Positions 1,592 through 7,999 of a stretch of 27,572 nucleotides of DNA are shown in pieces. The DNA is from a virus. Its lineage: Duplodnaviria; Heunggongvirae; Uroviricota; Caudoviricetes. The notes beneath the pieces were generated by a model. It worked only from the letters and a program-made list of their open reading frames with translations. It searched no databases and was not told the origin of the DNA. The stretch spans positions 1 to 27,572 of IMG/VR virus record IMGVR_UViG_2639762873_000006, one strand, 5' to 3'. The translations under genes and the position numbers were made by a program. Numbering within the stretch: the first letter of the stretch is position 1; the number at the start of each line of letters is the position of its first letter.

Positions 1592-1972
1592 ATGAAAAAT
1601 CTCTTTACCCTAGCTGTACTCGCTACGGCTACAATCACTACTGGCTGTACTACTATAACGCCTGCTTTTATGAATGAAGCCGTAGTAGGTGATATTAACG
1701 GTCGTACACTAGTATTATTCCCCGTAAATGGTGGTAAAGAGTATCGCCCACAATTCAGTAGTGATTGTCAGCCTATGCTATTGGGTGAAGAACGCCCATC
1801 TACTGGTAGCTGTATTATTGCCGCCGACCGACTTACAAATATTCATAGCTTCGAAGAACATAAAGCCCACGGCCCCCACAAAAACACCACTAAGATAGTT
1901 GATCGTTCAAATAATTACGGTACAGAATTTGAGTTATCGAAACCAACTAATTATATAGACGATAATCTGTGA
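1592..1972 (+). CDS. putative lipoprotein (126 aa)
   Basis: N-terminus MKNLFTLAVLATATITTGC: basic residue, hydrophobic core, lipobox-like TTGC with Cys at about position 19; RBS AAGGA 8 nt upstream. Confidence 0.6.
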   Translation: MKNLFTLAVLATATITTGCTTITPAFMNEAVVGDINGRTLVLFPVNGGKEYRPQFSSDCQPMLLGEERPSTGSCIIAADRLTNIHSFEEHKAHGPHKNTTKIVDRSNNYGTEFELSKPTNYIDDNL

Positions 1973-2151
1973 TGAAGAAAACAATATTTGCCGTACTTTT
2001 AGTTATGGGGACTGCATATTACTATGATATAATAAAATACATTAACCCTACTTATTAAATTGCAGTCGCCGTAATCAAAAACACTGTCATTATCTGGCAT
2101 CAACAATGCCATTGATTCTGATAAAGTAGATAATCCCGAATGGATGAATTT

Positions 2152-2532
2152 ATGAAAAAGATTGTACTGTCTGCATTACTGTTAGTAGCCCCTTCGGTAC
2201 TGGCAGTAAATGTAATACTCCCTGATGATGGTTTATATCGTTGCGGTGTTGAATCGTGGGAACAGGTAGGAAAGCGAGTAGTAAAGACTGGTTATTATGG
2301 TATGACTGGTTATGTGAGTATTGATAACCGTGCTGTTAGTGTGAAGTTTAGGGATATGAATATTTCATTCAGCCCTGTTTCAAAACTTAAAAGCGGTCGC
2401 CTGATGGCCTATGCCGTAGATACTGACCAGTACGATATTATTATTAGTGCAATCAATGGTAAAACACAGTATATGGTCAGCAATGAGAATAATCCCGTAT
2501 TTTTGAACTTCTCCAATTGTATTATTGAATAA
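2152..2532 (+). CDS. secreted protein, paralog A (signal peptide MKKIVLSALLLVAPSVLA)
   Basis: Start at MKK chosen by alignment to paralog B; shared GLY(R/Q)C motif and C-terminal (F)(S/Q)NC(I/V) motif. Confidence 0.6.
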   Translation: MKKIVLSALLLVAPSVLAVNVILPDDGLYRCGVESWEQVGKRVVKTGYYGMTGYVSIDNRAVSVKFRDMNISFSPVSKLKSGRLMAYAVDTDQYDIIISAINGKTQYMVSNENNPVFLNFSNCIIE

Positions 2533-2541
2533 GGAATAGAA

Positions 2542-2928
2542 ATGAAAAAGGTTATCGTATCTGCATTACTGTTAGTAGCTCCTTCGGTACTGGCTAACAC
2601 TCACTCTCTACCAGAGCAGGGATTGTATCAATGTGATGTGAAAGTAGTTGAAATGCTGGGTGATACTCCAGTAGAAAAATCTTCTTATTCTGGTGCAGGT
2701 CACGCTAAAGTTAATAGTGATGGTTTTATCCTTAACTTCGGTGCAATGACTCACGCCACCGGACCAATAGAATCTAATGATTCAATGACAATGGCTTATG
2801 ATAATGATAAGCAGCGATACTTCCTTGCAACAATGGGAAGTAAAGAGCAAAACGATATTACTTTTATCTTCTTATTGAGATCTGATACTCGTAATTACTA
2901 CTTTCAAAACTGCGTTAAAATAAAATAA
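2542..2928 (+). CDS. secreted protein, paralog B (signal peptide MKKVIVSALLLVAPSVLA)
   Basis: RBS AAGGAA upstream; signal peptide nearly identical to paralog A at nucleotide level; mature part diverged. Confidence 0.65.
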   Translation: MKKVIVSALLLVAPSVLANTHSLPEQGLYQCDVKVVEMLGDTPVEKSSYSGAGHAKVNSDGFILNFGAMTHATGPIESNDSMTMAYDNDKQRYFLATMGSKEQNDITFIFLLRSDTRNYYFQNCVKIK

Positions 2929-2937
2929 GGGATATAT

Positions 2938-3147
2938 ATGTCAGAGAAACTAATTAAAGCAATCCGTAATATCACGGAATATAATATGAGTATTGAGCGT
3001 ATCATTGTTAGTACCGAAGACCAGCAACACTATTATAGTATTAATCCTTATAAGGAAACTGTAATAAAGGTAGCAGACCAATACGGCAAACCAATTGAAG
3101 GGGAAGTAGAAATACCACAAATACCGCCATTATTCGATACTAACTAA
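2938..3147 (+). CDS. hypothetical protein (69 aa)
   Basis: ORF with RBS AAGGGA; followed by an intrinsic terminator. Confidence 0.5.
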   Translation: MSEKLIKAIRNITEYNMSIERIIVSTEDQQHYYSINPYKETVIKVADQYGKPIEGEVEIPQIPPLFDTN

Positions 3148-3153
3148 TAATAT

Positions 3154-3180
3154 AGCCCACTAATAAAAGTGGGCTTTTTA
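3154..3180 (+). terminator. rho-independent terminator (AGCCCACT / AGTGGGCT stem, then TTTT)
   Basis: 8-bp perfect stem, 6-nt loop, T-run, directly after the stop at 3145-3147. Confidence 0.7.
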
Positions 3181-3198
3181 ATCTAATAAGGAAAGTAA

Positions 3199-3672
3199 AT
3201 GAAAATTATAAAAAACATTCCTTCACTTCCAGATGTAGAAGTGACACTAAGTAGCCGTACTAATGAAATTGTATTAGTACACAATACTAAAACTGGTCAT
3301 ACAGTAGTAGAGAATAATGATTCATGGTATGAGGGAAACACCGATAAAAAATCACATTGGGGTGATCATATCGATGATGCAGCAGCTTTTCATAGCTTCG
3401 CACAGAATCGCTGTACTAATCCCACTACTAAACCAGATCAAATTAGTGATTTAGCATTAGGTACGTTTTGCTTTCATAATGTATTAGAAGAAGATCTTGT
3501 ATTTGAAAACACTGATTACCATGCTGCAAGGTTATCCGGTATAGGTCGTGTAGTACCCACTGATTATAATAGTGTGACGGTATATGATCCAAATAATAAC
3601 CCACCAACCACTATTACAGGCGATGCAGCAGAAATTATAGTTCGCCTTCTATCAATGACAGTAACCAACTAA
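3199..3672 (+). CDS. hypothetical protein (157 aa)
   Basis: ORF with RBS AAGGAAA; no recognisable motif. Confidence 0.55.
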   Translation: MKIIKNIPSLPDVEVTLSSRTNEIVLVHNTKTGHTVVENNDSWYEGNTDKKSHWGDHIDDAAAFHSFAQNRCTNPTTKPDQISDLALGTFCFHNVLEEDLVFENTDYHAARLSGIGRVVPTDYNSVTVYDPNNNPPTTITGDAAEIIVRLLSMTVTN

Positions 3673-3678
3673 TAATCT

Positions 3679-3700
3679 AGCCCACTACTCACAGTGGGCT
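3679..3700 (+). repeat. second copy of the AGCCCACT / AGTGGGCT hairpin (different loop, no T-run)
   Basis: Same 8-bp stem as at 3154-3175 with conserved flanks (TAATAAT.TAG upstream, AATCTAA..AGGAAA downstream). Confidence 0.5.
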
Positions 3701-3725
3701 ATTCAATCTAACGAGGAAAAATATA

Positions 3726-4815: not shown

Positions 4816-4991
4816 ATTGCATAGACAATGCATAAACAGTGAATAATAGAATGATGGTATACTTCGGTACTGATAGGTGAAACATATCAACATTATGTGC
4901 AATTTGTGCGATTTTATCGAAAAATGATGAAATAAATCAAAATAAAGGTTGACAGTCCAAAATTATCATAGGTTCTCCCAAAAATGGCAAA

Positions 4992-5013
4992 GAGGGCGAG
5001 TTTTCGCCGCGAG
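4992..5013. other. GC-rich island in an AT-rich non-coding region; candidate cos/terminase recognition element
   Basis: GAGGGCGAGTTTTCGCCGCGAG is the only GC-rich stretch in the 4816-5132 intergenic region, about 120 bp upstream of the terminase small subunit; contains a GGCGA/TCGCC hairpin and elements like those I recall from lambda cos (GGGCG, GTTTTCGC). Confidence 0.25.
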
Positions 5014-5132
5014 TTATAATAAAAATACGTGAGAAATTTTACATAAAACAAACAAATATATAGATAAAACCTATTAGTACCGAAATAGATAGAAAATACC
5101 AATCAATGGAAAATGAATAGGAATTGCATAAA

Positions 5133-5702
5133 ATGGCAAAAAATAAAGACGATGGAACCCGCTATTCCTGGCAAGAAATCGCCGACCGATTCGGCGTAGA
5201 ACATTCCACAGTATCGCGTATCTGGTCGGGGAAAGGATTAGATATTAGCTGGCCTAAGAAATTAGTAGACGACTGGTTACTAGCGAACGTAATCGAACCA
5301 ATGCGTAATGGTGATGTGAAGGGAATGATCCATAAAGCCACACTACGCAAACTAGAAGCAGAAGCAGACCTAAAAGAATTAGAACTACGACAGCAATCTG
5401 GTGAACTAATTCCGGTAGCAGTAGTACAGCAAACATTATCACAATATTTCTATCAACTACGTCAGGTACTAAGAAGTATACCGGCAGCAAGTTACGTAGA
5501 ACTATTTGAATCACAGGACGCTTTAGAATTAAAAATTAAATTACAGGACAAGATAGACCGCCAGCTAGAGGAAATAGGCGGCTATGAATATGAGGGAACA
5601 TATGAAGAACAACTACCAGAAGATGATGAAGATCCTAACGAGGGCGGCGAAGTCGATCCTACCTCCGAAGAAACAACTACCCGCAGAGTGGGTAGAGAGT
5701 AA
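5133..5702 (+). CDS. terminase small subunit (HTH DNA-binding, acidic C-terminus)
   Basis: Immediately upstream of the large terminase; helix-turn-helix-like SWQEIADRFGVEHSTVSRIW near the N-terminus; track start 5124 is TTG, so the first ATG at 5133 (RBS AGGAA) is preferred. Confidence 0.6.
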   Translation: MAKNKDDGTRYSWQEIADRFGVEHSTVSRIWSGKGLDISWPKKLVDDWLLANVIEPMRNGDVKGMIHKATLRKLEAEADLKELELRQQSGELIPVAVVQQTLSQYFYQLRQVLRSIPAASYVELFESQDALELKIKLQDKIDRQLEEIGGYEYEGTYEEQLPEDDEDPNEGGEVDPTSEETTTRRVGRE

Positions 5703-7497
5703 CCTAGTCTTCCCCGATGGCGAACTACAAGGGCAACGCGTCAAATTATTTGCCTTTCAACATAAGCCCATCAACGATATAGTTAATCCACGTGTACGTA
5801 AAGTGGTACTAATGAGTAGTGCTCAACTTCTCAAGACAACGGTACTACAGAATAGTATGTACTACTTCCTCGCCAATGATCCTAGTAACATGATATTTGG
5901 CGGTGCTACTGGTGGTACTACTAGTAAATTTAGGACTGGTAAATGGCAAGCAGTCATCGAAGCATGTTCGGTACTGAAAAATCTCGTTAGTAATAAGAAC
6001 GACAAGAACTATACGAACAATGACAAGACACAACAAAATTTAGATGGTACGTTTACCTACTTCCTGTCATTGGGTAGTAGTGCTTCACTACGTGGTCTAA
6101 CGGCCCCTCGCGTATTTTTGGATGAGATATCCAATGTCAACGCCGACGGCGAAGAAGGCAATCCCTTGAAGCTGGCAGAACAGAGAACGAAAGCATTCAG
6201 TAACCCCCTTATTATGTGCTGTTCTACTCCACTTGATGAACATGACCTGATTACCCAACAGTACGAACAAAGTAATAAACAAAAGTTTTATGTACCTTGC
6301 CCTCACTGTAACCACTCACACGAAATGGTATTTGAAAATGTTAAATTCGAATGGAAGATTATTGAAGGCGGTCGCCGTCGTATTCCTGATGCAGACACTG
6401 CAAGGCTAGAATGTCCTAAGTGTAATAATGTAATAACAGAAGCAGAACGTGTACGAATGATCCGTAGGGGTGAATGGATAGTAACAGCACCAGAAGTAAC
6501 CGATATAATGGGCTATCACATATCTAGACTCTATTCCCCTATCAACTCGATCAAATCGATTGTAGCAGACTTTGCCGAAGCACATTATACCTTTGACCTT
6601 GCATCATTCTATAACAACGTCTTAGGACTACCATATATTGATAAAGAGAATACCGACCATGATTTAGTATTATTGGAGAACCTAAGAGATAGTGAAATAG
6701 ATATTAATAATATACCCGACGATGTACTAGGGGTGGTATACGGCGTCGATCAGCAGCTCGACAGGTTGGAGGTAACTACACTAGGAGTAAGTGAGAAGAA
6801 TCTCTATGTTTTAGATCATCGCAGTATATACGCAATTGACTGTACTAAAATCGAAGCCCCAGCATGGAATAAACTAACGGCCTTTGCCAATGCACCATTG
6901 AAAACACATTCGGGTAAACCACTTAAAGTATTAGCCGGATTCGTCGATAGTAGTAATGGCAACGCAACCAGTACCGTATATCGTTATTGCAGTAACTCTA
7001 CTATCTTTAAACCTATTAAGGGTGGTACGTCTAACTCAAACCCACTATTCAAAGGTAGTACCGCTGGTGGTCACTCCCTGATTAACCTTAATGTAAACTT
7101 AGGTAAAACGAACGTTAGACAATTACTAAACCGTGCTGTATCCGATAGTGAAAATAGTAAGGAAGTACAAATACATTTCAGCCATTCATTACCAGATGAT
7201 TACTTTATTCAGATTACATCCGAGAAACGAGTGATAAAGGCTGGTGCCTGGGTATGGGTGAAAAAGGTTAGTAGTGCGAGGAATGAAACTCTCGATTGTC
7301 TTAATTACTCGCTTATATGTTTCCAGTGGTATCTATCTAAATTGGGTAGTCAACCATTCCGACAACTAAGGGAATATAACGCGAAACAAAAAGAGAAAGC
7401 AGGACTAAATAAAGAAGTAAATACAGAAGAAGCACCAACTAAGCCAACTCCAAAACGAGTAATAAGGCCGCGTAAAGGTGGTGGATTCTTTAAATAA
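5584..7497 (+). CDS. terminase large subunit, lambda gpA-like family
   Basis: 637 aa, close to lambda gpA length; N-terminal LPAEWVESN...FP motif resembles the gpA N-terminus; zinc-ribbon-like CPHC ... CPKC; C-terminal ETLDC motif. The 5' end overlaps the small subunit by about 119 nt; alternative start ATG 5602 has a GAGGGA RBS. Confidence 0.85.
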   Translation: MNMREHMKNNYQKMMKILTRAAKSILPPKKQLPAEWVESNLVFPDGELQGQRVKLFAFQHKPINDIVNPRVRKVVLMSSAQLLKTTVLQNSMYYFLANDPSNMIFGGATGGTTSKFRTGKWQAVIEACSVLKNLVSNKNDKNYTNNDKTQQNLDGTFTYFLSLGSSASLRGLTAPRVFLDEISNVNADGEEGNPLKLAEQRTKAFSNPLIMCCSTPLDEHDLITQQYEQSNKQKFYVPCPHCNHSHEMVFENVKFEWKIIEGGRRRIPDADTARLECPKCNNVITEAERVRMIRRGEWIVTAPEVTDIMGYHISRLYSPINSIKSIVADFAEAHYTFDLASFYNNVLGLPYIDKENTDHDLVLLENLRDSEIDINNIPDDVLGVVYGVDQQLDRLEVTTLGVSEKNLYVLDHRSIYAIDCTKIEAPAWNKLTAFANAPLKTHSGKPLKVLAGFVDSSNGNATSTVYRYCSNSTIFKPIKGGTSNSNPLFKGSTAGGHSLINLNVNLGKTNVRQLLNRAVSDSENSKEVQIHFSHSLPDDYFIQITSEKRVIKAGAWVWVKKVSSARNETLDCLNYSLICFQWYLSKLGSQPFRQLREYNAKQKEKAGLNKEVNTEEAPTKPTPKRVIRPRKGGGFFK

Positions 7498-7507
7498 GGA
7501 AAATAAA

Positions 7508-7999
7508 ATGGCAATAGTTCGCAAAGTAACTTTAAAAGGCGATATCTTTAAAGGCGAGACTATTACATTCGATTACCCCGCAGGGTCAGAAGTAGACTTG
7601 ATTGATCCAAACGGGGTAAAGACCTCATATACATATCCCTTCCCAGATATTGATACTAGTAACTGGGTAGCGGGTGTATGGACTGCAATTATTAACAGTA
7701 CCGTAGCATATGGTGTACAACAATTCGAAGTAATAGATCCAACTTCTAAAGCGTCAGAATATAACGACCTGATGCAAATCATCAAAGATATTGACCAGAT
7801 CATCATGGATAGAATTAAGGGCGGTGGTGTATTAAGTCAATCAATTCAAAATAAATCATTAACATATGAAAGTAGTGAAATACTTATGAAACTACGCCCT
7901 GTATATGTCAGTCGTGCAAATGATTTACTTTCGGATATGAAAGGATTCAATACTGGATGTCCTATCAAATCAATTACTACATTTAGGAGATCTCGCTAA
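7508..7999 (+). CDS. hypothetical protein between terminase and portal (163 aa)
   Basis: ORF with RBS AAGGAAA; occupies the position of lambda W but is larger and shows no similarity I can recognise. Confidence 0.5.
   Translation: MAIVRKVTLKGDIFKGETITFDYPAGSEVDLIDPNGVKTSYTYPFPDIDTSNWVAGVWTAIINSTVAYGVQQFEVIDPTSKASEYNDLMQIIKDIDQIIMDRIKGGGVLSQSIQNKSLTYESSEILMKLRPVYVSRANDLLSDMKGFNTGCPIKSITTFRRSR

Follow-up and report, generated by a model that had tools for sequence, protein, structure and literature searches.

In bacteriophage lambda, the genes for the two terminase subunits overlap out of frame. The small-subunit gene nu1 occupies positions 191-736 and the large-subunit gene A, which begins with GTG, positions 711-2636, so that 26 nt are shared, with A in the +1 frame. 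Annotated terS/terL overlaps elsewhere measure 47 nt (CRP-701), 8 nt (PPpW-3), and 4 nt (KLER1-1). The ends of the two proteins that lie near such an overlap have been implicated in their contact. The C-terminal region of lambda TerS binds TerL, and P22 TerL carries its TerS-binding site at the N-terminus; within TerS, variability and flexibility are greatest in the C-terminal moiety (PMC9611059). Overlap is also relevant to how a downstream gene is translated. Coupling by termination and reinitiation works at spacings of about -4 to +3 nt, loses efficiency faster with growing overlap than with growing spacing (reviewed by Brown and Wade, PMC12548453), and in one systematic study was no longer seen at -25 nt (PMC12548453).

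The DNA analyzed here, termed the window, is a stretch of 27,572 nucleotides from a virus of the Caudoviricetes (IMG/VR record IMGVR_UViG_2639762873_000006, positions 1 to 27,572). Its terminase genes have the lambda layout with a much longer overlap. The features that enter the comparison are as follows, with window coordinates.

5133..5702, + strand: terS, small terminase subunit, 189 aa (phrog_57; RefSeq names of orthologs)
5520..5579, + strand: last modelled TerS helix, residues 130-149 (AF2), ending just before the terL frame opens
5592..5596, + strand: Shine-Dalgarno-like GAGGG for terL, 5 nt 5' of ATG 5602 (6 nt from the GAGG core), inside terS
5602..7497, + strand: terL, gpA-type large terminase, 631 aa from the best-supported start (PF05876, PF20454, Shine-Dalgarno site, periodicity)
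5602..5702, + strand: putative dual-coded overlap, 101 nt, TerS residues 157-189 and TerL residues 1-34
5686..5691, + strand: "EW" codons of terL, with the invariant W at 5689-5691, the anchor for comparing loci
5700..5702, + strand: terS stop TAA, made of the last base of the terL codon AGT (Ser) and the first two of AAC (Asn), in a conserved VE(S/N)N segment

The terL frame is open from 5578, lies +1 relative to terS, and contains an open reading frame from ATG 5584 to 7497. Its product matches PF05876 (GpA ATPase; E = 7e-50, residues 58-298) and PF20454 (GpA endonuclease; E = 1e-41, residues 309-579), both far above the gathering score, as well as phrog_15 (2e-129). The N-terminal motif of gpA proteins, P-P-x-x-x-x-x-S-E-W at about 28-35 residues from the start, reads PPKKQLPAEW in the window, where the final pair is E35 W36 when counted from 5584. 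The tryptophan is invariant in eight diverse TerLs that include lambda gpA (alignment A1), and it was found in all 92 loci with an alignable column, of 96 surveyed. Downstream lie a phrog_5774 head-tail joining protein (gpW-like, 7478-7999) and a lambda-family portal (PF05136, 7999-9495), which completes the lambda-type packaging order terS, terL, gpW-like, portal. Judged by domains, motif, and synteny, TerL is a gpA-type (lambda-like) large terminase, with only 22% identity to lambda gpA.

TerS is assigned as a small terminase (phrog_57; DUF1441/Nu1-like) by profile, model, and position, and this family assignment holds. A profile search matches residues 4-176 to phrog_57 at 6e-19, a weak N-terminal HTH_23 match falls short of the Pfam cutoff (E = 0.0011), and PF07278 is precomputed for the homologs P0001 and P0006. 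The gene sits directly upstream of terL, and its E. coli orthologs are named "terminase small subunit" in RefSeq. The start at ATG 5133 is common to relatives, whose proteins open with MAK/MSK..DDGTRY; the mechanical open reading frame begins at TTG 5124. An AlphaFold2 model built from an alignment of 16 family members has modest to low overall confidence (mean pLDDT 58) and shows short N-terminal helices followed by the long helices of a helical core. Residues 151-189 have a pLDDT of about 35 and no secondary structure, and this low-confidence tail is the same stretch in which the terL frame is open. Sequence searches of the PDB with TerS and TerL gave nothing usable, so there is no structural template for a TerS-TerL interface.

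Resemblance to lambda thus extends to the TerL family (gpA ATPase and nuclease with an N-terminal ..EW..), to gene order, and to a terL start that directly follows the last TerS helix. TerS itself, whose homologs carry PF07278, is set beside Nu1 by gene position and layout rather than by homology. The difference lies in where the small-subunit gene ends. Nu1 stops at gpA codon 9, whereas terS in the window reaches terL codon 34, past EW, which adds an acidic tail of ~30 residues. The initial annotation had named both terminase genes at these coordinates, placed EW at about residue 35, and described a long overlap in another frame that exceeds the one in lambda; the profile matches (phrog_57; PF05876, PF20454) and the comparison with lambda bear out each of these points.

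Upstream of terS, positions 4816-5132 form a 317-nt AT-rich non-coding gap. The arms of a 19-nt inverted repeat, 89% complementary, lie in it at 4860-4878 and 5069-5087, along with short direct repeats of the TGCATAnACA type. By analogy with lambda cosB, these repeats are candidate cos or TerS-binding elements.

Comparison of relatives confirms, at the level of sequence, that the out-of-frame overlap is real and conserved, at about 101 nt with bounds of 77-119 nt. The overlap and its +1 frame relation are kept in every relative of the clade in IMG/VR, GTDB, and RefSeq, which amounts to at least 13 prophages with TerS identity down to 58%, and the 11 distinct relatives scored have overlaps of 83-101 nt. 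Since it is kept in all clade relatives and its codon usage is unlike that of the rest of the window, the overlap is more than a chance arrangement. Most relatives have the terS stop at the same position, within the terL codons for V-E-(S/N)-N; in L006 and L011, terS ends 15 nt earlier at TGA and loses its last five residues. Indels inside the overlap leave both frames open, and those whose size can be told (a 36-nt duplication and 3-nt insertions) are multiples of three. The duplication is a tandem one in L005 (2965-3036) and in the same region of L008, equivalent to about 5590-5625 of the window, so that GTYEEQLPEDDE occurs twice in the TerS tail and KEHMKNNYQKMM twice in the terL frame. The ATG of the second copy has the same Shine-Dalgarno energy (-5.7 kcal/mol), and should terL begin there in these two relatives, only TerS would be lengthened.

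The relatives comprise 12-13 IMG/VR contigs (TerL 73-97% and TerS 58-94% identical), a Pseudocitrobacter faecalis prophage in GTDB (88%), and orthologs in two of 5426 complete E. coli genomes (90-92% DNA identity). TerS homologs come from E. coli, Salmonella, Citrobacter, Klebsiella, Raoultella, and Pluralibacter. Because the relatives and the TerS homologs come from such hosts, the window is assigned to a lambda-like prophage lineage of Enterobacteriaceae. Its G+C content is only about 0.36-0.43, even though all relatives have Enterobacteriaceae as hosts. As the E. coli count indicates, this is a rare lineage, and it has no close relative among GenBank phages: neither blastn with 4900-7600 nor tblastn with TerS found anything in 50,697 phage records, and all TerL matches there are distant, at 37% identity or less. 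The closest of these (37%) is L027, Escherichia phage DCP80 (PQ671644.1, record positions 1734-3716). This 141-kb record is classed as T4-like Straboviridae, an odd home for a lambda-type gpA terminase with gpA-style neighbors, and it may be chimeric or mis-assembled. Another irregularity is found in L012, where a 1-nt deletion (GCCGG-GCAACG, record positions about 3330-3370, window about 5895-5905) breaks the terL frame; it reflects either a sequencing error or a decaying prophage.

To place the window among gpA-type operons, 80 GTDB loci and phage loci were anchored on the TerL tryptophan, and the overlap was estimated from the start nearest 29 codons upstream of it. The 69 non-redundant loci outside the clade of the window have overlaps with a median of 20 nt and quartiles of 4 and 50, reaching at most 152 nt. 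Overlaps of at least 75 nt occur in 13 of these loci (about one in five) and overlaps of at least 100 nt in nine, and the frame relation is +1 in 44 of 56 overlapping pairs. The overlap in the window therefore falls in the upper 13-19% of the gpA-type distribution and is not unique.

Other long overlaps are found in prophages of Alphaproteobacteria (L041, L042, L084, and L057), in L040, L037, L033, L103, and L092, and in L110 from Photobacterium. These loci, which were picked for having long overlaps, share with the window the layout, the frame relation, and a terS stop at or beyond the invariant tryptophan, with estimated overlaps of 101-152 nt. They differ from it in being unrelated in sequence beyond the family motifs and in having tails that are not uniformly acidic. 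A TerS segment of the form "..EAL.EL.." directly precedes the terL start in lambda, in CRP-701, and in the long-overlap loci that were inspected; beyond it, terS extends for a variable distance. How little separates a short overlap from a long one is seen in two Photobacterium prophages that are 98% identical in this region (L106:3030-3035 and L110:1410-1415). They differ by a TTT/TTC change that is synonymous in terL and turns the terS stop TAA into CAA, and this single base gives TerS of L110 an additional 28 residues and extends the overlap from 17 to 101 nt.

The locus as a whole is probably to be explained by a conserved, dual-coded overlap of ~101 nt with independent initiation of terL at 5602 and selection in both frames, where the start and the translation of the tail are deduced from the sequence. 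Within the overlap, substitutions in the terL frame show third-position periodicity, and terL dominates the sequence constraint. The choice among terL codons is nevertheless displaced relative to the rest of the gene. In the 11 relatives, G at the third position of terL codons has a frequency of 0.31-0.48 in the overlap versus 0.08-0.14 elsewhere in the gene, and T has a frequency of 0.03-0.19 versus 0.31-0.39. A T-ending terL codon before AA, AG, or GA would make a stop in terS. The same displacement stands out against the other genes of the phage. Among 1286 windows of 33 codons taken from 20 other open reading frames, none reaches the overlap G3 of 0.467 (mean 0.10, maximum 0.364), and only 0.2% have a T3 as low as that of the overlap.

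Composition of the terS-frame peptide gives a second signature. When terL codons were redrawn among synonyms from the usage of the gene itself in each of the 11 relatives, the resampled peptide had a mean charge of -1 to +3, versus an observed charge of -9 to -13. The observed charge was reached in no more than 0.06% of resamplings in each relative, including L010 and L011, in which the tail sequence is different. The probability that the terS frame stays open under this resampling is 0.03-0.31 per sequence. Openness of the terS frame alone is weak evidence, because such probabilities are not small for one sequence; composition is the stronger evidence. With both frames open and conserved and an independent signature of selection in each, the overlap is supported as a dual-coded segment. 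Selection would act on the amino-acid sequence of TerL and, in TerS, on the openness and acidic composition of the tail, and the constraint of the terS frame would be paid for by pushing terL third positions toward G and away from T.

In overprinted viral frames, one frame is commonly described as constrained and the other as compositionally biased and modelled as disordered. The locus resembles such overprinting and stop-loss overlaps in that the terL frame carries the constraint and the terS frame encodes a biased segment modelled as disordered. It differs in that no new gene arises: the 3' end of an existing gene is extended over the 5' end of its neighbor, and the products are subunits of one enzyme.

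The alternative that survives best is neutral drift of the stop codon, under which terS once stopped near the terL start and then lost that stop codon, the TerS tail is functionless read-through, and only terL is selected. Several observations fit this account. A terL-synonymous TTT/TTC change toggles the overlap between 17 and 101 nt in the two Photobacterium prophages; overlap lengths among gpA-type loci range from none to 152 nt; and the terS stop shifts by 15 nt within the clade. The tail, furthermore, varies at first codon positions of terS and is modelled at very low confidence and without secondary structure. Drift does not, however, account for a G3 of 0.467 in the overlap when none of 1286 control windows exceeds 0.364, nor for an acidic charge that is nearly unreachable by resampling (P <=0.0006 in 11 of 11 relatives), nor for the persistence of the tail down to 58% TerS identity. 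A purely neutral origin of the present tail is accordingly considered unlikely.

The length of the overlap depends on where terL begins. In-frame ATG codons are present at 5584, 5590, 5602, 5623, and 5626, and the next starts are GTG 5803 and ATG 5812, either of which would remove the conserved TerL N-terminus with its invariant tryptophan. No start beyond 5626 is usable, so the overlap is 77-119 nt whichever ATG is real. Within these bounds, ATG 5602 is the best-supported start, in preference to 5584 or 5590, because upstream ATGs have been lost in relatives, substitution periodicity switches at this point, and the strength of the Shine-Dalgarno site is conserved. ATG 5584 is ACG in L005-L009 and L012, and ATG 5590 is ACG in L012. 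These changes are synonymous in terS (TAT to TAC), and the four sites that vary within 5584-5601 among closer relatives are all synonymous in terS and non-synonymous in the terL frame. Pairwise diversity follows the same boundary. Third positions of terS and terL have values of 0.38 and 0.18 upstream of the overlap, 0.27 and 0.11 in 5584-5601, 0.14 and 0.33 in 5602-5702, and 0.06 and 0.42 downstream, so that the terS pattern flips to the terL pattern at about 5602.

Initiation signals point the same way. The anti-Shine-Dalgarno duplex for ATG 5602 has an energy of -6.1 kcal/mol in the window, and the equivalent sites, with a start 28-29 codons before the tryptophan, have energies of -5.6 to -6.5 kcal/mol in 11 of 11 relatives. 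Sites for the other candidate ATGs are weak, inconsistent, or absent across these relatives. The distance of 28-29 codons is also that of L010, L011, and the candidate starts of several distant loci.

A different start is quite unlikely, whether at 5584 or 5590 (overlap 119 or 113 nt) or at 5623 or 5626 (80 or 77 nt). The upstream pair has some points in its favor: in the window alone, 5584 and 5590 have Shine-Dalgarno energies about as good as that of 5602, and the GTGAATAT start of lambda aligns with ATGAATAT at 5584. These are outweighed by the loss of both codons in several relatives through terS-synonymous changes. For ATG 5623 and ATG 5626, no Shine-Dalgarno site was found (-0.6 and +0.2 kcal/mol), and both lie beyond the periodicity flip at 5602. 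RefSeq annotates the terL starts of two E. coli orthologs at the equivalents of 5584 (119-nt overlap) and 5626 (77-nt overlap); these starts, L111:3085 and L112:3134, disagree with each other, and neither agrees with the comparative call of 101 nt. The initial annotation had put the start at 5584-5602, of which the downstream limit is the best-supported position, while 5584 and 5590 are not conserved in relatives.

Grouped with a different start, and no more probable, is the reading of the two-frame layout as an artefact. A frameshift introduced by sequencing error is excluded on comparative grounds, since more than 13 independent assemblies, as well as distant loci, show the same layout. A programmed +1 frameshift producing a TerS-TerL fusion is judged unlikely; slippage by -1 out of terS would not lead into the terL frame.

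On this reading both products would be made, with TerL initiated independently at ATG 5602 from the Shine-Dalgarno site inside terS rather than by ribosomes that end at the terS stop 100 nt downstream. The RNA around this start is purine-rich and less structured than its shuffles. Positions 5561-5650 have a minimum free energy of -8.6 kcal/mol, whereas shuffled versions average -12.0 (z = +1.4) and fold equally well or better in 186 of 200 cases. RNAalifold found zero consensus pairs around the terL start in seven relatives. Structure of the kind that could inhibit initiation is thus not found, and an unstructured initiation region leaves nothing for terS ribosomes to unmask. Tight coupling, in which terL would depend on terS ribosomes through termination-reinitiation or the melting of an inhibitory structure, is very improbable even though co-oriented overlapping genes for subunits of one complex are a class in which coupling is common (PMC12548453), as the terL start lies at a spacing of -101 nt from the terS stop when coupling is lost by -25 nt in the studies reviewed (PMC12548453), terL has its own conserved Shine-Dalgarno site, and the region folds less well than its shuffles with no consensus structure in seven relatives. 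If terS ribosome traffic has any effect under independent initiation, it would probably be to lower initiation of terL and thereby keep TerS in excess, as it is in the 2:1 protomer of lambda. The initial annotation had offered tight coupling or a dual-coded segment and had suggested comparing both frames in relatives. That comparison, with both frames open and conserved and a signature in each, upholds the dual coding; the coupling is disfavored by the spacing, the separate Shine-Dalgarno site, and the unstructured RNA.

What the acidic tail does may be sought in the contact between the subunits. In the model, folded TerS would end at about residue 150 and the last ~39 residues would form a very acidic tail predicted at very low confidence. 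From residue 157 on, this tail would be encoded by the same DNA as the basic N-terminal 34 residues of TerL, read one base later. TerS 157-189 is YEEQLPEDDEDPNEGGEVDPTSEETTTRRVGRE, with a net charge of -10, and TerL 1-34 is MKNNYQKMMKILTRAAKSILPPKKQLPAEWVESN, with a net charge of +5. By analogy with lambda and P22, it is plausible that the acidic tail contacts the basic TerL N-terminus. An alternative candidate role would be to modulate the DNA-binding domain of TerS.

A more far-reaching proposal is that the overlap encodes both sides of the TerS-TerL contact, as a self-complementary overprinted interface whose faces co-evolve. The charge complementarity would follow from the frame relation, because GAR (Glu) in terS reads AAG/ARG (Lys/Arg) one base later. 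In its favor, both segments sit where lambda and P22 place interacting regions, and their charges are -10 and +5. Against it stand the labile length of the tail and the neutral or basic tails at other long-overlap loci, where net charge ranges from -8 to +9 and includes 0, +3, +4, and +9. Since tails elsewhere are not always acidic, a general role in charge complementarity is not supported, and a co-encoded interface is a doubtful prospect for the window as well. If true, a single DNA stretch would create and co-evolve both faces of a protein-protein interface.

No long-standing question is opened here. The overlap is an extended case of the lambda-type terS/terL overlap that is already known, recurrent in the family, and already present in RefSeq with inconsistent starts. 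The analysis adds an assignment of the terL start, numbers for the two-frame signature, and a survey of how long such overlaps are. In annotation practice, gene callers disagree (119 vs 77 nt), and comparative evidence places the start at the equivalent of 5602. Long terS/terL overlaps of up to about 150 nt recur in gpA-type operons and are not to be trimmed as annotation errors. The window also offers a small, clean case of what appears to be two-frame selection, in which terL third positions are 47% G versus 10% elsewhere in the phage. Because one terL-synonymous base change truncates the TerS tail, the locus provides a genetic handle on the acidic C-terminal tails of small terminases.
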